NCBI GenBank assembly: GCA_035719245.1
Contig: DASTGJ010000665.1
Location: 1-52,040, forward strand
Length of the DNA stretch: 52,040 nucleotides
Direction of reading: 5' to 3'
From: Kofleriaceae bacterium
GTDB lineage: Bacteria > Myxococcota_A > Polyangia > Haliangiales > Haliangiaceae
This document shows, one piece after another, positions 40,901-51,666 of this stretch. How positions within the stretch are numbered: position 1 is the first letter of the stretch; each line of letters opens with the position of its first letter. Under the pieces are notes generated by a model, which saw only the letters and a program-made list of their open reading frames with translations, was not told where the DNA came from and ran no database searches. A program made the position numbers and the translations under genes.

Positions 40901-41830
40901 ATGAGCTCGCTCGACCTCGTGCTGCAGCGTGCGCTCTCGGTGCGGCTGAACCTCCAGATCACGCTGTCGCAGCTGCCGATCGTCGAGGAGTGGATGGACA
41001 TCCACCTCGATCGCTGGCTCGAGCACCTGCCGCTGCCGACCGACATGAGCCACGGCGAGGCGGTGAGCTACCTCGCGATGCTCGGCAGCGACCTGCGCCG
41101 CATGTGGTGGGGCGCGTGGGGCGCGCCGTCGGGCTTCGTGCCCAAGATGGCCGACTACTTCAAGCTGTGCAACATCGCCAAGAGCGACGCCGCGCTGCTC
41201 GATCAGATCGGCGAGCACCTCGAGCCCAAGCTCGTCGGCTCGTGGATCGGCGTGTGGGGCGGCAAGGTCACCACCGGCTGGCACTTCTGGGATCCGCAGC
41301 CGTGGGGCAAGGTCGAGGCGATGTTCGGCACCCACGAGGCCAAGTACCAGCTCAAGAAGTTCGTCGAGGACTTCAAGATCGAGCGCATCGAGCGCTTCAC
41401 GCAATCGATCGGCGACGCGCCGTTCTCCGAGGTCGAGCTCGCGATGCCGGGCGCCACGGTCGACGAGCAGGTCGGCGCGCTCGACGCCGCGTTCCTCGGC
41501 TTCACCAGCCAGCCGCTCGAGCCCGCGTTCGTCGCCGGCCTGCGCTCGATCGGCGTGCCGCAGTTCGCGGTCTCGCTCCGCATCCGCGGCGGCAAGGTCG
41601 CGCGCATCGGCGCCCTGCTCCCCGGCGTGGCGATCGACGACGTGCAGCACATGTGCGCCGACGCCAAGGTGCCGGTCGAGGCCCGCCTGCCCAAGCTGGT
41701 GGGCGCGCTCGGCGAGGCGATCTCGCGCGTCGAGTACGTGCGCGCCGGCGACCGCGCCGGCATGGACGTCTACGTCGAGCCGACCGATACCAAGACGCCC
41801 GCGCCGGCGCCGGCGAGCAGCGCCAACTAG
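40901..41830 (+). CDS. Hypothetical protein (about 309 aa), no recognised domain
   Basis: High-GC3 ORF. ATG 40901 is preferred over TTG 40895. Its stop overlaps the start of the next gene (TAGTG). Confidence 0.6.
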   Translation: MSSLDLVLQRALSVRLNLQITLSQLPIVEEWMDIHLDRWLEHLPLPTDMSHGEAVSYLAMLGSDLRRMWWGAWGAPSGFVPKMADYFKLCNIAKSDAALLDQIGEHLEPKLVGSWIGVWGGKVTTGWHFWDPQPWGKVEAMFGTHEAKYQLKKFVEDFKIERIERFTQSIGDAPFSEVELAMPGATVDEQVGALDAAFLGFTSQPLEPAFVAGLRSIGVPQFAVSLRIRGGKVARIGALLPGVAIDDVQHMCADAKVPVEARLPKLVGALGEAISRVEYVRAGDRAGMDVYVEPTDTKTPAPAPASSAN

Positions 41831-42351
41831 TGGCGCGCGCCGACTTCCTGCTCGCCAGCGACGACGCGCTCGTCGCGCAGTGCGAGGTCGATCGCTACCG
41901 CGCGTCGGGGCCGGGCGGTCAGCACCGCAACAAGACCGAGAGCGCGGTCCGCTTGCGCCACAAGCTCTCGGGCGTGACCGCGATCGGCGAGGACAGCCGG
42001 TCGCAGGCCGAGAACAAGCTGCACGCCGTGCGCCGCCTGCGCGCCGCGATCGCGCTCGAGGTCCGCGAGCCGGTCGCGCTCGACGGCTTCACGCCGTCGC
42101 CCCGGCTCGCCGCGCTCGTCGCCGGCGGCACCGCGCCGCTCGGCGCCAAGACCCGGCTCACCGGCGAGTTCTGGGCCGCGATCGCCGAGCTGCTCGACCT
42201 CCTCGTCGCCGGCGAGCTCGAGATCGCCGCCACCGCGCAGCGGCTCGGCATGACGACCGGCGCGCTGTCCAAGCTCTTGCTCCACGACGAGCACGTCGGC
42301 CGCGCCGTCAACGATCTGCGCCGCGCGCGCCAGCTCCGCCCGCTGCGCTGA
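41830..42351 (+). CDS. GGQ-domain (class I release factor / ArfB-like peptidyl-tRNA hydrolase) protein with an atypical C-terminal extension
   Basis: GTG start at 41830. YRASGPGGQHRNKTESAVRLRH places the GGQ at residues 29-31. The ~100-aa Ala/Leu-rich C-terminus ends RRARQLRPLR. Confidence 0.7.
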   Translation: MARADFLLASDDALVAQCEVDRYRASGPGGQHRNKTESAVRLRHKLSGVTAIGEDSRSQAENKLHAVRRLRAAIALEVREPVALDGFTPSPRLAALVAGGTAPLGAKTRLTGEFWAAIAELLDLLVAGELEIAATAQRLGMTTGALSKLLLHDEHVGRAVNDLRRARQLRPLR

Positions 42352-42428: not shown

Positions 42429-42767
42429 CTACAGCTCGATCGGCTGGCCGTGCGGCGTGGCGCGCGCCGCCTCGGCCCACGCGTCCTTGCGCGCCGCGAG
42501 CTCGTCGCGGCTGACGAGGCCCTTGGCGGCGACCAGGTGCTCGAGCGCCGCCAGCCAGTGCTCGTAGTAGGTGTCGCCGAGGTCCGGATCGCCGGCGGCC
42601 TGCGCCGCCTGGATCTGCGCCGCGAGCGCCGCGGCCCACTCCGGCCACGTGAAGTGCCCGGCCTCGTGCAGGCGCACCGCCATCGCGAACGCCTGCGCCT
42701 GCCACGGCGCGCGGAACACCGGCTCGCCGCGCGCGTCGCGCGGCAGGCCCTCGATCTCGGTGGTCAT
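42429..42767 (-). CDS. Nitrile hydratase accessory (activator) protein
   Basis: 112 aa starting [38 protein letters not shown] resembles the beta-subunit N-terminal region, as in Co-type NHase activators. ATGA-type overlap with the beta gene. Confidence 0.8.
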   Translation of the reverse strand: MTTEIEGLPRDARGEPVFRAPWQAQAFAMAVRLHEAGHFTWPEWAAALAAQIQAAQAAGDPDLGDTYYEHWLAALEHLVAAKGLVSRDELAARKDAWAEAARATPHGQPIEL

Positions 42768-43441
42768 GGCGCGGCCTCCAGGTAATCGTCCCACAGATCG
42801 ACGCACACCGTGTCGCGCGGCGACGCGTCCGGCCCCCACAGCTCGCGCGCGGTGAACCGCACCGTGTACACGTGCTGCGGCTGCTTGCCCGCGCCGGCGG
42901 CGTGGCTGTCGGGGAAGATGAACACGCCGTGATCGATCGCGACCACGCCGCGCCGGCCGCGCACGTAGCGCGGGATCCGGGTGTGGCCGGTCGGGTGGAC
43001 GTTGCGCGCGATCACCGGCTGATCGACGGCGAACTTCGCCGCCACCGCATCGTCGAGCCGCGCGGCGCGCCGGTTCTGCAACAGGCGGGGCACGCCGTCG
43101 GCGCGCAGCGCGCCGTCCTGCACCGGGGCGCCGATCGCGGGCGGCGGCTCGCCGCGCTGCACGCGCGCGATCTCGTCGGCCGAGGTGAAGCCGTGCTCGA
43201 CGAGCAGGCGCTCGAGGCCGAACAGCCAGTGCTCGTAGTACGTGGTCGCGAGGTAGGCGGCGGGCGGCATCTGCTCGCGCGCCGAGCGGCTCATGTCGAG
43301 GTTCCAGCGCCGCCACGCGCCCATCGCGAGCGTGAGGGCGAACGCGCGGCGTTCCCACGCGGCGTGGAACGCCGGCTCGTCGGGCTCGGGCTCGACCCTG
43401 CCGAAGCCGTGCATGCCGCCGAGGTCGTGCGCGCCGTTCAT
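42764..43441 (-). CDS. nthB: Nitrile hydratase beta subunit
   Basis: Classic N-terminus [14 protein letters not shown]. 225 aa. Overlaps the alpha gene stop by 4 nt. Confidence 0.9.
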
Positions 43442-44136
43442 CGTGCCGCCTCCGCCGCCTCGGGCGCGCGCACCACGCCGGTGCCGATCATCGAGTCGCG
43501 GGTGACGATCGCCGCGAGCTCGTCCTCGGTCATGCCCTCGGTGCCGGCGGGCCGGCGCGGCAGCACGAGGTAGCGCAGCTCGGCCGTCGAGTCCCACACC
43601 CGGACCTCGATGTCGTCGGGGAGCTCGACCCCGAAGTCGCGCAGCACGCCGCGCGGATCGATCACCGCGCGCGAGCGGTACGGCGCCGACTTGTACCAGA
43701 CCGGCGGCAGGCCGAGCACCGGCCACGGGTAGCACGAGCACAGCGTGCACACCACCATGTGGTGCACCGCCTCGGTGTTCTCGACCACGACCATGTCCTC
43801 GCCCTGACGGCCGATGAACCCGAGGTCGGCGAGCGTGGCGGTCGCGTCGGCGAGCAGGCGCTGCTTGAACGCCGGATCGGTCCACGCCTTGGCGACCACC
43901 TGCGCGCCGTTGCGCGGGCCGACCTGGGTCTCGTAGGTCTCGACGAGCGCGTCGAGCGCGGCCGGATCGACCAGGCCCTTCTCGGTGAGCAGCGACTCGA
44001 GCGCGCGCACCCGGAGCTGCACGTCGCTCAGCGGCGCGTTGTGCGGGTGCGCCGGATCGTCGGTCCCGTGGTGGTGATCGTGATCGCCGTGATCGTGATC
44101 GTGATGGTGATCGTGATCGTGATCGTGGCCGCTCAT
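43438..44136 (-). CDS. nthA: Nitrile hydratase alpha subunit, cobalt type, with a His/Asp-rich N-terminal extension
   Basis: [14 protein letters not shown] metal-binding motif (Thr indicates the Co type). N-terminus [24 protein letters not shown]. Confidence 0.9.
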
Positions 44137-44155
44137 CGCGACCGCATCTTAGCCG

Positions 44156-44484: not shown

Positions 44485-45351
44485 TCAGCGCTCGGGGAGC
44501 GGCACGAACTCGATCTCGTCGTCGATCACCTTGGCGAACTTGCCGGCCTTCCAGTCGGCCTTGGCTTGCTCGATCCGCGCCTGATCGGTCGCCACGAAGT
44601 TCCACCACATGTGACGCAGCCCGTCGAGCGGCGCGCCGCCGAGCAGCATCACGTTGGCCGCGGTGGTGGCGCAGATCGCCGCGTCGGCCCCGGCCTGGAG
44701 CACGACCATCGTCGCGGGCCCGAACGCGCGGCCGTCGCACTCGATCGCGCCGTCGATCACGTACACCGCGCGCTCGGCGTGCGTGTCGTCGATCGCGAGC
44801 GTCGCGCCGGGGTCCATCGCGGCGTGCACGTACAGGGTCGGCGTGAGCACGCTCGTCGGCGCGACCGCGCCGTACGCCGCGCCGGCGACCACGCGCAGGG
44901 TCACGCCCGGGCGCTCGATCGTGGGCAGCGTGTGCTGCGGGTGGTGCTCGAACCTCGGCGCCATCGCCTCGTGATCGCGCGGCAACGCGATCCAGGTCTG
45001 CAGGCCGAGCATGCGGCTGCCGCGCGCGCGGACCTCGGGCGCGGTGCGCTCGGAGTGGGCGACGCCGGCGCCGGCGATCATCCAGTTGACGTCGCCGGGC
45101 CGGATCGCCTGCACGCTGCCCAGGCTGTCGCGGTGCACGATCTCGCCGTCGATCAGGTACGTGAGCGTGGCGAGCCCGATGTGCGGGTGCGGCCGGACGT
45201 CCATGCCGTGGCCGGGCGCGAGCTGCGCCGGCCCCATGTGGTCGACGAAGATGAACGGGCCGACCGAGCGCCGCACGCCCGACGGCAAGCTGCGCTGCAC
45301 CGGGAAGCCGCCGATGTCGCGCGGCCGGCCTTCGATCACGACGTCGATCAT
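44485..45351 (-). CDS. Pirin-family bicupin protein
   Basis: MDVRPHPHIGLATLTYLIDGEIVHRDSLG is the N-terminal cupin metal site. 288 aa. ATGA overlap with the MFS gene stop. Confidence 0.85.
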   Translation of the reverse strand: MIDVVIEGRPRDIGGFPVQRSLPSGVRRSVGPFIFVDHMGPAQLAPGHGMDVRPHPHIGLATLTYLIDGEIVHRDSLGSVQAIRPGDVNWMIAGAGVAHSERTAPEVRARGSRMLGLQTWIALPRDHEAMAPRFEHHPQHTLPTIERPGVTLRVVAGAAYGAVAPTSVLTPTLYVHAAMDPGATLAIDDTHAERAVYVIDGAIECDGRAFGPATMVVLQAGADAAICATTAANVMLLGGAPLDGLRHMWWNFVATDQARIEQAKADWKAGKFAKVIDDEIEFVPLPER

Positions 45352-46592
45352 CGCTTACGTGTAGCACCGATGCGGAGCACGATGACCGCGGCGACCAGGC
45401 AGATCAGGCCGGCGCCGAGCCAGGCCGGGGTGTACGCGCCGGTCTGCGTCCGGATCACGCCGGCGGCGAGCGCGCCCGCGCCGGCGCCGAGCTGGTGCGC
45501 GGTGAACAGCCAGCCGAACACGATCGGGCCATCGACCGGGCCGACCGCGTCGACCGTGAGCCGCAGGGTCGGCGGCACGGTGGCGATCCAGTCCAGGCCG
45601 TAGAACACCGCGAACGCGGGCAGGCCGAGCACCTCCACGCCGAACGCGATCGGCAGGTAGATGAGCGCCAGGCCGCGCAGGCCGTAGTACACGAACAGCA
45701 GCCGCCGCGCGTCGTGGCGATCGGTGAGCCAGCCGCTCGCCGTGGTGCCGAACAGATCGAAGATGCCCATGGTCGCGATCAGCTTGGCGGCGCGCACCTC
45801 GGGGATGCCGTGGTCCATGCACGCCGGCACGAGGTGGGTGCCGATCAGGCCGTTGGTCGTCGCGCCGCACACGAAGAAGCTCACCGCGAGCAGCCAGAAG
45901 TCGCGGTGCTTGGTCGCGCGGCCGAGCGCGCCGAGCGCGAGCGCGAGCGGGTTGCCCGCCGGCCGGGGCGGGACCGGCGCGTCGGGATCGGCGCCGTACG
46001 GCCTCAGGCCCACGTCGTCGGGGTGATCGCGCAAGATGAACATCACGATCGGCACCAGGGCGAGCACCGCGATCGCGATCGCGCGCGTGAGCGGCCGCCA
46101 GCCATCGCTCTCGACGAACGTCGCCATCACGGGCAGGAACACGAGCTGACCGGTCGCCGAGCTCGCGGTCAAGAGGCCCATGACCAGGCCGCGGCGCGCC
46201 ACGAACCAGCGCTGCGCGATCGTCGCGCCGAGCACGCTCGCGGTCACGCCGGTCGCCAGGCCCACGATCGCGCCCCAGCTCGCGTAGAGCTGCCACGGCG
46301 CTCGCACGAAGCTCGCCGACTCCACGCCGGCCGCGATCACGACGAGCGCGGCGAGCACGGTGCGCCGGATGCCGAACCGCTGCATCACCGCGGCGGCGAA
46401 CGGCCCGATCAGGCCGAACAGCACGAGGTTGAGCGACACCGCGCCCGAGATGATCTGCGTCGACCAGCCGAGCTCGTCGTGGAGCGGCACGATGAGCAGG
46501 CTCGGCGTCGCGCGCACCGCGGCGGCGCCGAGCAGGATCACGAACGTCACCCCGGCGACGAACCACGCGTAGTGGATGCGGCGGCGGCTCAC
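45348..46592 (-). CDS. MFS transporter (12 TM)
   Basis: GTG start at 46592, in a GTGA overlap with the MarR stop. Hydrophobic 414-aa protein with two six-helix halves. Confidence 0.8.
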
Positions 46593-47008
46593 GGCGCGGC
46601 GCTCGCGGTCACGGCCTCGAGCGAGGTCAGGAGGACCTGCCAGTCGGCGCCGAGCTCGGCCGCCATCCGGCGCTGCACCGCGTGCCAGCGCGGCTCGGCC
46701 TCGGCGAGCAGGGCGCGGCCGGCCGCGGTGATCGCGAGCACGCGCGCGCGGCGATCCTCGCCGGTGCGGATCGCGATCCAGCCCCGGCTCTCGAGCCCGC
46801 GCGCCGCGCGGTTGAGCGCGGTCTCCTCGATCACGACGAGCGCGGCGAGCTCGCGCATCGTGCGCTCGCCGTGGCGCACGAGCTGCCGCAGGAGCGAGAA
46901 CTGCGTGATCCGGAGGTCGAGCGGGCGAAGCGCGTCGTCGTACACGCGGGTCACCGAGCGCGTCGCGCGGCGCAGCGCGGCGCACAGGCAAGGGGTCGGG
47001 GCCGGCAT
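46589..47008 (-). CDS. MarR-family transcriptional regulator
   Basis: The last 139 codons of a 1121-aa artefactual [39 protein letters not shown] ... wHTH ... [13 protein letters not shown]. Confidence 0.85.
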
Positions 47009-47011
47009 TTG

Positions 47012-47025
47012 TATGCATATGCATA
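47012..47025. promoter_or_regulatory. Perfect 14-bp palindrome TATGCATATGCATA (candidate MarR operator) overlapping a TATAAT box
   Basis: AT-rich island in the divergent marR/toxin intergenic region, 4 nt from the marR ATG. TATAAT at 47024-47029 faces the plus-strand gene. Confidence 0.5.
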
Positions 47026-47161
47026 TAATCGTCGGCCGCCGAACGCAAGCACGGTGCGATTCCCGGCGCCTGCGCGGCGCCAACGTCGCGCCGATCACAC
47101 GGCGTAATCGGCTGTCATGGATCGTCGGAGCCGCGGTTCGTAGGGTGGTCGGCCAAGGAGG

Positions 47162-50056
47162 ATGGCGTTGCAGCATGACCACCGGACGGGATCGGCCGCA
47201 TCGGCGCACGCGGGGAGCGCGACGAGCACGGCGGTGCCGGGCAAGCGCACGTTGACCGGCGGCCTCGCGGTGCAGCGCCGCGCCGACGGCGCGGAGGCGA
47301 GCGGCCCCGACGTCCACGCGATCGCGGCGCAGGGCACGGCCGGCGCCGGGAGCGCGCTGCCGTACGCCGACGTCATCCAGCGCGCGTTCGGGCGCCACGA
47401 CATCTCGGGCATCCAGGCCCACACCGGCGGCACCGCCGCGGCGAGCGCGCGCGCGATCGGCGCCGAGGCCTACGCGACCGGCAACCACGTCGTGCTCGGC
47501 GGCAAGCGCGACCTCCACACCGTGGCGCACGAGGCCGCGCACGTCGTGCAGCAGCGCGGCGGCGTGCAGCTCAAGGGCGGCGTGGGCGAGGCCGGCGATC
47601 CGTACGAGCAGCACGCCGATCAGGTCGCCGACGCGGTGGTGCAGGGCCACAGCGCCGAGGCCCTGCTCGATCGCTACGCCGGCGCCGGGAACGCCGGCGC
47701 GCCGGCCACGCAGCGGATCGTGCAGCGCGTGCAGGTCACGTGGGCCGGCGACATCCAGCCCGTGGTCGGCTCGTCGGTGTCGGGCGCGCGACCGTCGGCG
47801 CCCAACGATCCGTTCGCGTTCCTGAACGCCGCGATCGCCGACGAGCTCGGCCTGGGCGCCAAGAAGAACGCGCTGATGGTGAAGATCCAGGCCCAGAGCG
47901 AGGCCGAGACCGACGCCATGGTCAACGAGCTGCGCCGGCTCAACAAGCTCCAGGAGACCAGGAACGCGCTCGGCGCGCCGTTCGAGGCCGTGCTCGCGCT
48001 CCACGCGCAGGGTTTCGGCGCGCGCGACTACCACGCGATCCTCAAGCCGTACGAGACCGTGGATCCGCCGAGCGCCGGCGCCCGCGACCTCGCCGTGCAG
48101 CAGGTCGATCAGCTCGCCGCCGGCCCCAAGGGCCACGTGGTGACGCAGCTGCTCGCCCGGCGAACCTGGTCCGTGCTGTCGCCGCGGCTCGGCGCGCAGT
48201 TCGACACCGTGATCGCCACCGTGCTCTACGAGCGCTACCTGCAGGGCTACGAGCGCGCGACCCAGGCCGCGCCCCTCGGCTGGCAACAGGGCGCGTTGAT
48301 CGCGCTCCAGGGCCTCGACGACTTCGCGCTCCACAAGCTGCTCGCGCTGCTCAGCACGACCAAGGCCGCGTACGTGCCCGCGATCTCGCTCGCGCTCGGC
48401 GGCGGCTTCGAGCAGCTCGTGAGTGGTCGCGTCATGCAGCGGGTGGACGCCGCCGGCCCGCCCGGCCCCGCCGCGGTCATCAACGGCCTGAGCGACCTCG
48501 AGCTGCGCATGCTCGCGCGCTACCTGCTCGCCAACGGCAGGACCCAGAGCGTGCACACCACGGTCGGCCCGGCCGCGCACGACGCCGCGGTCGGCAAGGA
48601 GCTCAGCGCGCGCGTCCAGCAGGCCATCGCGTGGGAGTTCGGCGACCGCAGCAACAAGATCCTGCCCGTGATCGCGACGCTGTCGAGCTACGAGCTGACC
48701 CACATGCTCGCCGAGATGCGCACGGTCGCCGCGCACGAGCCGCACGCGCTCGACACGCGCGGCGCCCAGGCCGCCGCGATCAACAACAAGGTCGCCGGCC
48801 ATCACTACGACAGCCTGCTCAAGCGGTTCGCCGACGGCGCCACGCCGAGCGGCGGCGAGGCCGGCCAGGTCAACGCCGAGCTCGGTCGGCTCCACCCGTT
48901 CGAGCTCACGATGGTGACCGCGAAGGTCTACCAGGAGGGCAAGCAGGCCACCCTGATCGGCAAGCTCGGCGATCCGTTCAAGGCCCTGTACCACGAGGGC
49001 CTGCGCCTGGTGTTCGACCGCTACACCGACATCGGCGTCCGGTCGGCCTTGCTCAAGGAGCGGTTCGGCATCGAGTTCGGCAAGGACGCCGGCATGTCGG
49101 GCACCGGCGTCGACTGGGACGTGCGCGGCCAGGCGCAGGCGTGGGACGTGCTCGAGCGCCTGCCGCCGACGCACGTGATCGGCAACGACAAGCTCGCCCG
49201 GATGCTGCGCTACCAGATCGGCGACCCGGGCGACCTGCTCAGGATCACCGAGCTCGGCGCGAGCGGCGCGCACGGCGGCAGCACGCTCACCGTCGGCTAC
49301 GACGAGGCGATCATCGACCGCACCAAGAACAACTCGGCCACCGGCGCCGAGCCGCTCGCCAACGTCAACCGGTTCGACACCACCGTGCGCCACGAGGTCG
49401 GCCACGCGGTCGACGCCAAGCACAACCTGTCGGCCGGGTACTGCGCCACCCCGGCGGGCGGCGACTGGAAGAAGCACGACGACAAGACCGCGCTCGCCAA
49501 CCTGTTCGTGGCGCAGGCGCCGAGCAGCGCGGTGATCCGGACCTGGGCCAACCCGCTGCAGAAGACCAAGATCCTCGGCAAGCTCGCTCAGATCCTCGGT
49601 GACGAGAGCACGTCCGCGGCGGTCGATACCCGGCTCGCCGAGCTCAAGTCGGGTGGCAACGCGCTGTCCGAGCACGAGCTCACCACGGTCAAGACCGACG
49701 GCGGCGTGGCGGCGATCCGGACCGCGATGGCCAAGGGCTCGCCGTGGTACGCGCACCCCACCGGCGGCATCCCGCTCGCCGACGGCCGGATCTATGTCCA
49801 GTCGTACGGCGACAAGCGCGCCGGCGACTGGGCGAGCTACGCCCAGGCCGCGCGCACGCGCAGCGTGTCGATGTACCAGTTCCGCGCCGCCGCCGAGTGG
49901 TTCGCCGAGGCGTACGCCACGTACTACGAGCCGGGCGACGGCTCCGGCGCCCACCTCGGCCGCAAGGAAGCCGTCAAGCAGGCCAACGGCGCCTTACTCG
50001 CGGCGCGCGATCCGGCGACCAAGACGTGGTTCGATCTCAACGTCGCGACCAAGTGA
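47162..50056 (+). CDS. 964-aa protein with an N-terminal DUF4157 zincin-like domain and a C-terminal lethal-factor/MtfA-like HExxH...EWFAEA domain (toxin-like)
   Basis: AAGGAGG RBS. PGKRTLT near the N-terminus. [24 protein letters not shown]...[16 protein letters not shown] matches the DUF4157 pattern. Second site [10 protein letters not shown] (residues 743-751) and [13 protein letters not shown] (910-922). Confidence 0.8.
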
Positions 50057-50064
50057 GACCCCCC

Positions 50065-50616
50065 ATGTCCGGACCCAACACACCCGCCGCGCGGCGCGCG
50101 GTGGCCGAGGCGCGCGGGCTCGCCGAGGCCGAGCTCGAGGTCGAGTGGCTCGTCGGGGCGCGCGTGCCCGGGCTCGCCGTGTTCCGCTGCGAGCGGCGGC
50201 CGCGCCCCGGTCAGCGCGGCGCGTACAACGCCGGCGTGATCGCCGGTGAGACCGTCGAGCTCGATCCGCGGCGCGCGATCGAGCGCGTGGTGCGCGCCTG
50301 GCAGTACGACGAGCGCCGGCCGGTCGCGGCGGCGCAGGTCGCCGAGGTGATCGGCTTCCTCGTCGGCGGCTCGACCGCCGCCACCACGGCGCTCGTCGAT
50401 CCGGCGCGGCTCGCCGAGCTGCCCGCCGCCTGGCACGCCCACGTCGCCGCGCCGCGCGAGGTGGTCGTCGACGGCGCGCCCGCGGTCGTGTTCTGGGTCG
50501 CCGGCGCGTTCGTCGAGGACAGCGCGCCGCCGTTCTGGCGCGTCGAGCTCGCGGTGCCGGCCGACGGCGCGCCCGTGCTCCGCATCGAGAGCCTCACCGC
50601 GGTGCTCGCCCGTTAA
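50065..50616 (+). CDS. 183-aa hypothetical protein, putative cognate partner (immunity/inhibitor) of the upstream protein
   Basis: ATG lies 8 nt after the upstream stop, on the same strand. High GC3, no signal peptide, no recognisable motif. Confidence 0.55.
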   Translation: MSGPNTPAARRAVAEARGLAEAELEVEWLVGARVPGLAVFRCERRPRPGQRGAYNAGVIAGETVELDPRRAIERVVRAWQYDERRPVAAAQVAEVIGFLVGGSTAATTALVDPARLAELPAAWHAHVAAPREVVVDGAPAVVFWVAGAFVEDSAPPFWRVELAVPADGAPVLRIESLTAVLAR

Positions 50617-51098
50617 TCGGCATCGAACGAGCGCAACAGCTTGGGCGGCAGCACGGCGCGGATCTGCATGCCGCCCGGCGTCGCCGTGCCCTCGAGCCAC
50701 ACCACGCCGCACTTCTTGATCGCGATCGCGTCGCCGAGCCGCGCGTCGCCGAACGCGAGCAGGCCGACCAGCTCGCCGAGCCACGGCTCGTGGCCGATCA
50801 CCGCCGTGGTCTCGCCGTGCTCGGCGATCTGCGCGAGCAGCTCGGGCCTGGGCGCCTGGGCGAGCCACGGCGTGGTCTCGATCGCGGCGCGCGCGAGCGC
50901 GCTCATCGCGCGGGCGGTGTGCAGCGCGCGCTTCCACGGGCTGGTCAGCACGCGGTCGAACCGGACGTCGATCGCCTTGAGCCCGGCCACCACGCGGTAC
51001 AGCTTGGCCCGGCCCTCCGGCGTGAGCTCGCGTTCGCGATCGTCGAGGCCGGCCACGGGGTCCTCCGCGATCGCGTGCCGGATCACCATCAGCTGCAT
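50613..51098 (-). CDS. sixA: SixA-type phosphohistidine phosphatase (histidine phosphatase superfamily, short form)
   Basis: 161 aa starting MQLMVIRHAIAE (RHA/RHG motif). TSPWKRALHTA and IGHEPWLGEL motifs. Confidence 0.7.
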   Translation of the reverse strand: MQLMVIRHAIAEDPVAGLDDRERELTPEGRAKLYRVVAGLKAIDVRFDRVLTSPWKRALHTARAMSALARAAIETTPWLAQAPRPELLAQIAEHGETTAVIGHEPWLGELVGLLAFGDARLGDAIAIKKCGVVWLEGTATPGGMQIRAVLPPKLLRSFDAD

Positions 51099-51141
51099 GT
51101 CGGCATTTGACACCCGGCGTGGCCCGTGCGAAAGCGCGAGG

Positions 51142-51666
51142 ATGAACAGCGTGCTGATCCGAGCTGTCGCGGCGGTCGCCCTGGCGTCGAACGCGTGCGG
51201 TGGCTCGCCGCCGCCGGGCTCGACCACCGAAACGCTCGAGTCGTCGCGCGTGGCCCAGCCGCACGCCGAGGGCCGCCACGCCGCGGCCGAGCCGATGGCG
51301 GGCGGCGACGAGCCGGCGATGGCGCCCGAGATCAAGCGCTTCCACGACACGCTCGCGCCGCGCTGGCACGCCGAGCACGGCACCAAGCGGATGACCGAGA
51401 CGTGCAACGCGATCGGTGAATTCCATACCCGCGCCACCGAGATCGAGGACGCGGCGCCGCCCGCCGCCGCCGATCCGCGCGCGTGGGCCAAGTCCGGCAA
51501 GGCGCTGTCGCAAGCGGTCGTCGAGCTCGCCGCCGCGTGCAAGGCCAACGACGCCACCGCGTTCGAGCCCGCGTTCGACAAGGTGCACGACAGCTTCCAC
51601 CGCGTGATGGAGGCCGGCGGCGCCGGCGAGCACCACGAGCCGATGGCCGAGCCCGACGGCAAGTGA
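51142..51666 (+). CDS. Secreted or lipoprotein helical protein of unknown function
   Basis: [21 protein letters not shown] is a signal peptide with a possible lipobox. The rest is predicted helical and His-containing. Confidence 0.5.

Follow-up and report, generated by a model that had tools for sequence, protein, structure and literature searches.

The window analysed here is a stretch of 52,040 nucleotides from a Kofleriaceae bacterium, and comprises the whole of contig DASTGJ010000665.1 (assembly GCA_035719245.1). Our subject is an open reading frame (ORF) between positions 47,162 and 50,056 of the plus strand. An earlier note on this DNA, made from the sequence alone, had described this ORF as encoding a protein of 964 residues with two zincin motifs. 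The ORF exists as described and is closely followed by a second gene. We favour, with a probability of roughly 0.6, the reading that the pair represents an orphan four-module polymorphic toxin, of the type carried as cargo by PVC and extracellular contractile injection systems (eCIS), together with a cognate binding or immunity partner. The features on which the argument depends are as follows. Note that two of the regions were modelled using AlphaFold2 (AF2).

47,155 to 47,161, plus strand: Shine-Dalgarno sequence AAGGAGG, read off the sequence
47,162 to 50,056, plus strand: toxin-type ORF, 964 residues from the ATG, or 962 residues if the start is TTG 47,168
47,162 to 47,350, plus strand: low-complexity leader, residues 1-63, with PGKRTLT (G27-T32, nucleotides 47,240 to 47,257) and AVQR at residue 37
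47,351 to 47,686, plus strand: DUF4157 / eCIS_core / PVC-metallopeptidase module, residues 64-175, with HEAAHVVQ at 123-130 (nucleotides 47,528 to 47,551) and YEQHAD at 148
47,717 to 48,964, plus strand: orphan all-alpha middle region, residues 186-601 (AF2 model)
48,965 to 50,053, plus strand: C-terminal lethal-factor-like zincin domain, residues 602-964, of an unnamed family (AF2 model)
49,391 to 49,405, plus strand: HEVGH, residues 744-748, with two putative zinc-binding histidines and a putative catalytic glutamate, assigned by sequence; invariant in 95 sequences
49,874 to 49,915, plus strand: Y905-x6-E912-W-F-A-E916-A-Y918, with a tyrosine that is putatively catalytic and the helix of the putative third zinc ligand; invariant
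50,065 to 50,616, plus strand: partner gene of 183 residues, a candidate immunity or cognate binding protein, which begins 8 nucleotides after the toxin stop codon

The toxin-type ORF runs uninterrupted for 964 codons. Its GC content is 0.71, 0.50 and 0.97 at the first, second and third codon positions respectively, and that of the window as a whole is 71%. This pattern indicates that the ORF is a real gene. A spurious high-GC reading frame was considered and is ruled out by the third-position value and by the existence of an ortholog. This ortholog, P0002, was the only full-length relative found in a search of 5.8 billion protein clusters. It is 55% identical to the window protein (the query) from end to end, and keeps the same four-module architecture. 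Identity differs between the modules; it is 88% for the DUF4157 module, which is the most conserved part of the protein, 70% for the C-terminal domain, 52% for the leader, and 46% for the middle region.

The earlier note had also reported a strong AAGGAGG ribosome binding site before the start codon. While the motif is present, its pairing with ATG 47,162 does not hold, since no spacer separates the two. The distance to TTG 47,168 is 6 nucleotides. At the locus of the ortholog (L001) there is GAGGAGG, then 6 nucleotides, and then a GTG start encoding MEFDHRT. This N-terminus pairs with the query from L3, (M)QHDHRT. Because AAGGAGG is too close to the ATG, and because the ortholog has the same 6-nucleotide spacing, TTG 47,168 is the likelier start. 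The start in the public gene call, V25, is unlikely; it would place PGKRTLT at residue 2, compared with a median position of 27 in homologs. As previously noted, the protein has no signal peptide. There is also no transmembrane segment, and the highest Kyte-Doolittle mean across 19 residues is 0.8 within the first 70 residues and 1.4 overall.

Upstream of the gene, at window positions 47,013 to 47,029, a perfect 12-nucleotide AT-rich palindrome, ATGCATATGCAT, runs into TATAAT. This is conspicuous in DNA of such high GC content. The palindrome sits in the divergent intergenic region between an MFS gene (minus strand) and the toxin-type gene (plus strand) and, with TATAAT, could be an operator or promoter element. 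A promoter and terminator scan of positions 46,800 to 51,200 called none, and the sigma-70 consensus scan calls no promoter at the palindrome.

The N-terminal head and the middle region

The proposed N-terminal DUF4157 domain, with HExxH at H123-H127, was confirmed. Briefly, Pfam PF13699 (eCIS_core, formerly DUF4157) matches residues 72-134 with 50.6 bits, where the cut-off is 22 (E 2e-13), and HEAAH is found at residue 123. The query also carries the HExxHxxQ...E signature of Zhang et al. (2012), in the form of HEAAHVVQ and YEQHAD. All 120 of the 120 homologs listed have HExxHxxQ. The description of DUF4157 as a reported toxin marker agrees with the eCIS toxin literature, where the domain is a statistical marker of eCIS toxins and is tied only occasionally to type VI secretion (T6SS) (Geller 2021; Danov 2024).

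Among the 5.8 billion protein clusters, the N-terminal module has at least 1,577 homologs, and nearly all of these match only the first 12-20% of the query. Those with a named source are from Kofleriaceae or Myxococcales, and mostly from Kofleriaceae. After the module, the homologs continue with tails that include lipase, ATLF, colicin, OmpA, M23, VanY, LysM, actin cross-linking, annexin, endonuclease and calpain domains. A shared head, joined to unrelated C-terminal domains, is what marks out a family of polymorphic toxins.

G, A, S, T, P and Q make up 67% of the leader, which has no hydrophobic stretch. This composition, together with the low hydropathy, fits a disordered loading sequence. 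The GKRTLT motif, which had been pointed out ahead of DUF4157, is at residue 27 and is recurrent; GK.TLT is present in 70 of 120 DUF4157 homologs, with a median position of 27. The same motif heads 10 members of the C-terminal domain family that do not have DUF4157. In the 120 DUF4157 proteins, the tripeptide [VIL]-Q-R was seen 359 times and expected 54 times (6.7-fold). It sits a fixed distance from HExxH in three places (about -90, -50 and +65), corresponding to residues 37, 72 and 187 of the window protein. The outer pair, AVQR at 37 and IVQR at 187 in the query, brackets the shared module and could mark module boundaries or processing sites.

In the mechanism that we propose, the putatively disordered leader, with PGKRTLT at a fixed distance from the N-terminus, would be an export or loading signal. 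For AlgoCIS (2026 preprint), a disordered N-terminal region is needed for cargo loading and DUF4157 is dispensable. The DUF4157 zincin, with its HExxHxxQ...E signature, would participate in processing or chaperoning of the cargo and would not be the poison. Zhang et al. (2012, PMC3482391) proposed that DUF4157, under the name PVC-metallopeptidase, frees the toxin through autoproteolysis.

The middle of the protein had been described as free of recognisable motifs, and our searches are in accord. For residues 186-601, an exhaustive search of 1.84 billion representatives found no relative beyond the region's own cluster, and the only local match was to P0002. The AF2 model, made from a two-sequence alignment, has 25 helices (pLDDT 75, pTM 0.54). 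With this model, Foldseek returned only non-significant matches to generic alpha-solenoids. The motif LxxhEL is found at residues 385, 443, 507 and 577. Internal repeats were considered and rejected, with a best off-diagonal score of 33 compared to a maximum of 39 after shuffling. This all-alpha, fast-evolving and lineage-specific region of ~415 residues would act as a spacer. Long linkers or spacers before the effector are already reported for DUF4157 toxins in the eCIS cargo literature.

The C-terminal zincin domain

Residues 602-964 retrieve ~95 proteins that are 25-44% identical across all 363 residues. The family has no Pfam or NCBIfam model, and there is no precomputed Pfam domain in the C-terminal region of the ~95 relatives. 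HEVGH-AVD at 744, and EWFAEAY at 912-918, are located where the earlier note had placed them, and their key residues do not vary between homologs. Across 95 sequences, the invariant positions are P668, H744, E745, H748, V750, Y905, E912, A915, E916 and Y918, which speaks against motifs that arose by chance.

Lethal factor has H686, E687, H690, an essential Y728 and a zinc-coordinating E735. In PPEP-1, the oxyanion-hole residue is Tyr178. The Y-x6-E spacing of Y905 and E912 is the same as that between Y728 and E735, and Y905 matches Tyr178. Because of this equal spacing, the third zinc ligand is probably E912, the first glutamate of EWFAE, and not E916, which had initially been taken as the key residue. 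The two motifs were said to be ~170 residues apart, much further than in known enzymes. The distance is indeed longer, although the measured value, from H748 to E912, is 164 residues.

An AF2 model of the domain, made from the 95-sequence alignment, has a pLDDT of 90.6 and a pTM of 0.91. In this model, HEVGH is on a long helix (domain residues 136-153) and both E912 and E916 are on another. Between the two motif helices are five further helices and a beta-hairpin, which amount to an insertion of ~120 residues. Our data support the view that this C-terminal part is a zincin whose catalytic residues are arranged as in lethal factor. We propose that these 363 residues would be a zinc endopeptidase warhead with the constellation of lethal factor and PPEP-1. 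In this scheme, H744 and H748 would bind zinc, E745 would be the general base, E912 would be the third ligand, and Y905 would stabilise the transition state. The warhead would cleave one or more proteins in the target cell.

Homology searches with the domain lead towards the M34 peptidases. All 17 profile matches in the PDB are M34 enzymes, namely PPEP-1/Zmp1 (E 0.04-0.12), lethal factor, and an ATLF-like protein, with E values from 0.04 to 5.7 across the set. Sub-threshold matches to Pfam ATLF are made by 8 of 32 relatives (15-21 bits, where the cut-off is 27.4), at profile positions 144-193 only. Using hhalign, alignment to the Pfam-annotated ATLF domain of P0017 has a probability of 95%, across 44 columns only. 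With BLASTP, just the two motif segments align to the same domain. The segment from Y905 to Y918 can be aligned with both PPEP-1 and ATLF. A single-sequence search of the PDB with the query gave no match. Whole-protein Pfam and NCBIfam scans detected a sub-threshold Reprolysin match, around HExxH only, and no ATLF, M90 or Tox-MPTase. Neither its score nor the fold search places the domain in Pfam ATLF (PF07737). Hence, the lethal factor (M34) likeness that had been claimed holds for the catalytic constellation, and for the weak profile matches, but not for the ATLF threshold or the fold search. The suggested relationship to MtfA, or peptidase M90, is unsupported. No Pfam, PDB-sequence, profile or fold match was found at any threshold used, and only the general gluzincin pattern, HExxH with a downstream glutamate helix, is held in common. 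Our reading, from homology evidence that is consistent but weak, is that the domain would work like an M34 gluzincin. The ~120-residue insertion may mask a match between the core fold and M34.

We scanned one genome per species, covering 185,579 species genomes, for loci encoding the zincin family. There are 345 such loci, in a patchy distribution. They span Kofleriaceae/Haliangiales, Kibdelosporangium, Rhodococcus, Fluviicola, Ideonella, Pelomonas, Rhodobacterales, Chloroflexota and Acidimicrobiales; the phyla named are Myxococcota, Actinomycetota, Bacteroidota, Proteobacteria and Chloroflexota. Note that statistics for loci are derived from 80 fetched examples of the 345, searched with locally built hidden Markov models (HMMs). 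No fewer than four kinds of head precede the zincin domain. These are DUF4157, a PGKxTLT leader by itself, LQRxxGNxA leaders, and T6SS_Tse3_N, which is upstream of the zincin in four family members. DUF4157 is part of the same ORF in 21 of 84 non-redundant genomic family ORFs. The domain is also found with heads of unrecognised type, in proteins of up to 2,000 residues. Recombination of one toxin domain behind different heads is the pattern that defines polymorphic toxins (Zhang 2012).

At L072, L075, L076, L081 and L082 (from Pseudorhodobacter, Rhodobacterales including Cribrihabitans and Phaeobacter, and a metagenome-assembled genome (MAG) of Chloroflexota), the zincin belongs to proteins of 1,500-2,000 residues. 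It forms the end of these proteins, or is within the protein in the case of L075. A Pfam scan of four family members with 1,500-2,000 residues, and two with ~1,000, identified no known trafficking domain. The four longer proteins scanned were those of L072, L075, L076 and L082, but not L081, and their long N-terminal parts had no credible Pfam match. These long N-terminal parts may be novel trafficking regions. Separately, a single delta-proteobacterial MAG (MFD01275.bin.1.74; CAVYWJ01 contigs L007, L031, L060, L061 and L063) has at least five copies of the zincin, with and without DUF4157.

Companion genes, delivery and alternative readings

The product of the partner gene is 66-68% identical to that of the gene directly behind the ortholog (L001:11199-11885), and 28-31% identical to those of genes behind three distant family members. 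Note that a word-indexed homolog search finds only the partner of the ortholog; the distant partners were located by synteny and with a locally built HMM. The partner has no match to Pfam or the PDB, including in profile searches, and has no SuFu-type immunity domain. In the ortholog's genome, the gene pair has a site-specific recombinase and a CBM gene as neighbours, in surroundings unlike those of the window. We conclude that the toxin and partner genes move as a cassette.

Downstream sequence was sufficient for evaluation at 74 loci. The partner is present at 32 of these. A CpXC gene (PF14353) is found just downstream, on the same strand, at 62, and these represent six or more phyla. Both genes are present at 29 loci, in the order zincin, partner, CpXC. 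The CpXC assignment was confirmed by Pfam in 8 of 8 diverse loci. The protein has ~230 residues and two CxxC motifs, is cytoplasmic (it has neither a signal peptide nor a transmembrane segment), and belongs to a family of unknown function. Examples are listed below.

L007:11770-12477, same strand as the zincin gene: CpXC gene, downstream
L009:11631-12320, same strand as the zincin gene: CpXC gene, downstream
L034:11028-11738, same strand as the zincin gene: CpXC gene, downstream
L081:10838-11590, same strand as the zincin gene: CpXC gene, downstream

In Ideonella alba (L080:4953-10822), three zincin-CpXC pairs are in tandem, an array typical of toxin/immunity cassettes.

A lipoprotein signal, with a hydrophobic segment and a lipobox cysteine, occurs in 28 of 34 non-redundant partners. 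These include actinobacterial examples and the partner of the closest ortholog. The partner in the window starts ~45 residues later than that of the ortholog and has no signal peptide. The same is true of signal peptides in the L004, L037 and L052 partners. Both companions diverge with the zincin (r = 0.84 for the partner and r = 0.90 for CpXC). Median identities are 44% for the zincin, 40% for CpXC, and 32% for the partner, which is the fastest-evolving. An immunity protein would be expected to diverge in this way, faster than the zincin but in step with it. On this basis, the partner is a candidate immunity or cognate binding protein, but the second conserved gene, CpXC, complicates the assignment. 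In our favoured scheme, the partner would be the cognate binding or immunity protein, and its lipoprotein signal would have been lost in this lineage.

Tentatively, and at less than even odds, the companions could be combined in a three-gene system. This would comprise the zincin, a fast-evolving lipoprotein providing immunity in the envelope, and CpXC, a zinc-ribbon protein, as a cytoplasmic chaperone, adaptor or protease inhibitor. The window would then hold a derived, two-gene version, captured by DUF4157, that dispensed with CpXC by keeping the immunity protein cytoplasmic. If true, this would provide the first functional context for the CpXC family, as well as a new protease toxin family. 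Literature searches brought up no description of a link between CpXC and toxins, and nothing of relevance on contractile injection in Haliangium.

To understand the genomic context, we scanned ~40 ORFs across the window with Pfam. The families identified include efflux, two-component, kinase, aconitase, LeuRS, adenylate kinase, nitrile hydratase, pirin and MFS proteins. The toxin-type gene is an orphan cargo gene among housekeeping genes. In the training set of Danov 2024, 88% of known eCIS toxins are within ten genes of the operon, and no eCIS operon lies within about ten genes of the toxin-type gene on the 52-kb contig. From the DUF4157 head and the leader, we infer that delivery would be by a contractile injection system whose genes lie in another part of the genome.

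Several observations weigh against an injected toxin with a lethal-factor-like warhead. First, the window has no contractile-injection, T6SS or other secretion genes among the ~40 ORFs scanned, as had been remarked before. Nor are there injection genes within 10 kb of six relatives. At 15 loci where DUF4157 is fused to the zincin, 105 neighbours were compared, and no injection family is one of their 25 most frequent Pfam families. Second, CpXC is absent behind the window toxin and is also absent for the ortholog. Third, the prevalence of lipoproteins among the partners would indicate a target in the envelope and not in the cytosol, although the window copy has no signal. Fourth, the query itself does not match ATLF (PF07737), even at E values up to 10. 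Finally, a Foldseek search of the PDB with the C-terminal domain gave no match at E <=0.001, and no M34 enzyme among the 50 matches listed. The best match was a putative zinc peptidase (E 0.04, TM 0.2).

The lipoprotein signals bear directly on where the warhead might act. We think it unlikely, but the same warhead could reach the envelope or periplasm of bacteria nearby, by a T6SS-like or unrecognised route, and act there on a substrate that is periplasmic, a lipoprotein or a cell-wall peptide. The lipoprotein partner would confer periplasmic immunity, CpXC would be a cytoplasmic chaperone or adaptor, and the window would have a derived copy with a cytoplasmic immunity protein. The signal in most partners, and the T6SS_Tse3_N domain upstream of the zincin in four family members, are consistent with this. 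So is CpXC, which has no signal or transmembrane segment, is better conserved than the partner, and has the correlation of 0.90 with the zincin. Furthermore, a Parabacteroides DUF4157 cargo described in the literature is active only when directed to the periplasm. However, the partners in the window, L004, L037 and L052 have no signal peptide, and there are no T6SS genes near any examined locus. In addition, the statistical tie of DUF4157 is to eCIS, and only sometimes to T6SS.

We also considered whether the genes might not encode a weapon at all. The zincin, with the partner or CpXC, could be an endogenous processing or regulatory protease module, for which DUF4157 would be one of several regulatory heads. 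CpXC is strongly conserved across phyla, the loci lie amid housekeeping genes with no secretion system nearby, and many PVC-type toxins have no adjacent immunity gene (Zhang 2012, PMC3482391). Each of these points speaks for such a module, which we nevertheless regard as improbable. The family is patchy, at 345 loci in 185,579 species genomes, and has multiple or tandem copies. Its heads are shared with lipases, nucleases and actin cross-linking domains, the two orthologs are in different contexts, and only a single full-length relative turned up in 5.8 billion clusters. A simple housekeeping gene, conserved in the core genome, is ruled out by the patchy distribution. The earlier note had said that such conservation would count against its own reading; we found one full-length ortholog, in another context, and a patchy, multi-copy family.

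Least probable, and in our view very unlikely, is that the window holds a decaying, non-functional remnant. This would be an orphan cassette, away from its delivery system, that has lost CpXC and the signal of its partner. Neither CpXC nor a partner signal peptide is present, unlike in most relatives, and the contig has no injection genes. Against this, both ORFs are intact, with native codon bias (third-position GC of 0.97), and both zincins retain every catalytic residue. The ortholog has the same four modules, and graded identities of 88%, 46% and 70%, for the DUF4157 module, middle region and C-terminal domain, indicate purifying selection on the domains. Hence, we retain an orphan polymorphic toxin, with a cognate partner, as the preferred reading.

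Other genes of the window are recorded here for completeness. A nitrile hydratase operon lies at 42,429 to 44,148 (minus strand), with an alpha subunit confirmed by Pfam at 43,438 to 44,148. The beta subunit and accessory protein were recognised by reading translations of the overlapping ORFs at 42,764 to 43,885 and 42,429 to 43,358. A pirin gene at 44,485 to 45,354 is beside the operon. At ~41,830 to 42,351 (plus strand), the C-terminal part of the ORF at 40,990 to 42,351 has, by eye only, the look of an ArfB-type peptidyl-tRNA hydrolase, with GGQ in SGPGGQHRNKTESAV.

Relation to known systems

Should the domain prove to be an active endopeptidase resembling lethal factor, an unmodelled protease family, of ~95 protein clusters and 345 loci, would join the injected or exchanged toxins of bacteria. 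The large insertion may dictate a new substrate specificity, and the conserved companions, two in number, may show how producing cells avoid harm from a protease made in their cytoplasm. The finding would also show that DUF4157 cargo genes in Kofleriaceae are scattered far from injection operons, and this matters for predictors of eCIS toxins that rely on proximity to the operon. For the window itself, the practical outcome is a confident annotation of two hypothetical genes and no new principle.

The double-zincin architecture has been known since 2012. Zhang et al. (2012, PMC3482391) described toxins with Tox-ALFMetallopeptidase (Anthrax lethal factor) domains that use the PVC secretory system for delivery and are combined with PVC-metallopeptidase. 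The combination was reported in Actinobacteria, Bacteroidetes and delta-proteobacteria, and an example is Hoch_1736 of Haliangium (ochraceum), gi 262194969. What appears to be new, judging from searches of the literature and of Pfam/NCBIfam, is the zincin family with its large insertion, the partner gene, and the near-universal linkage to CpXC.

Like the Hoch_1736 class, the query joins a HExxHxxQ-E peptidase, constant at the N-terminus, to a lethal-factor-like HExxH peptidase, the putative toxin, at the C-terminus. The lineage (Haliangiales/Kofleriaceae) is also shared, as is a genome with many paralogous heads and varied tails. Note that the comparison with Hoch_1736 is by published description only, and a shared tail family is therefore not implied. 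By contrast, the query tail is not recognised by Pfam ATLF, and ~120 extra residues separate its HExxH from the Tyr/Glu helix. A further difference is in the associated genes. Those of the query family encode a lipoprotein-type partner and CpXC, whereas the 2012 table gives Imm-SuFu for the Tox-ALF class.

The characterised eCIS cargo proteins Cgo1 and Cgo2 of AlgoCIS, and EAT14, have a disordered N-terminus, then DUF4157, and then a variable C-terminal effector. The query has its parts in this same order, with a putatively disordered leader. Their genes are in, or beside, eCIS operons, whereas that of the query is an orphan on its 52-kb contig.

The closest enzyme parallels are domain IV of lethal factor and PPEP-1/Zmp1 (MEROPS M34, PF07737). 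These share with the query HExxH followed by AVD, and an essential tyrosine seven residues ahead of the zinc-binding glutamate on an E-(F/W)-F-A-E helix. A downstream segment, ...L...P.T..F, can also be aligned with the query family. The distance from HExxH to the glutamate sets them apart, being 164 residues in the query and 45 in lethal factor (H690 to E735). Delivery differs as well; the query domain is part of a modular toxin, lethal factor enters via protective antigen, and PPEP is secreted by the Sec pathway. We conclude that the window encodes a credible toxin-type gene, of a known kind, with an unnamed variant of the warhead.

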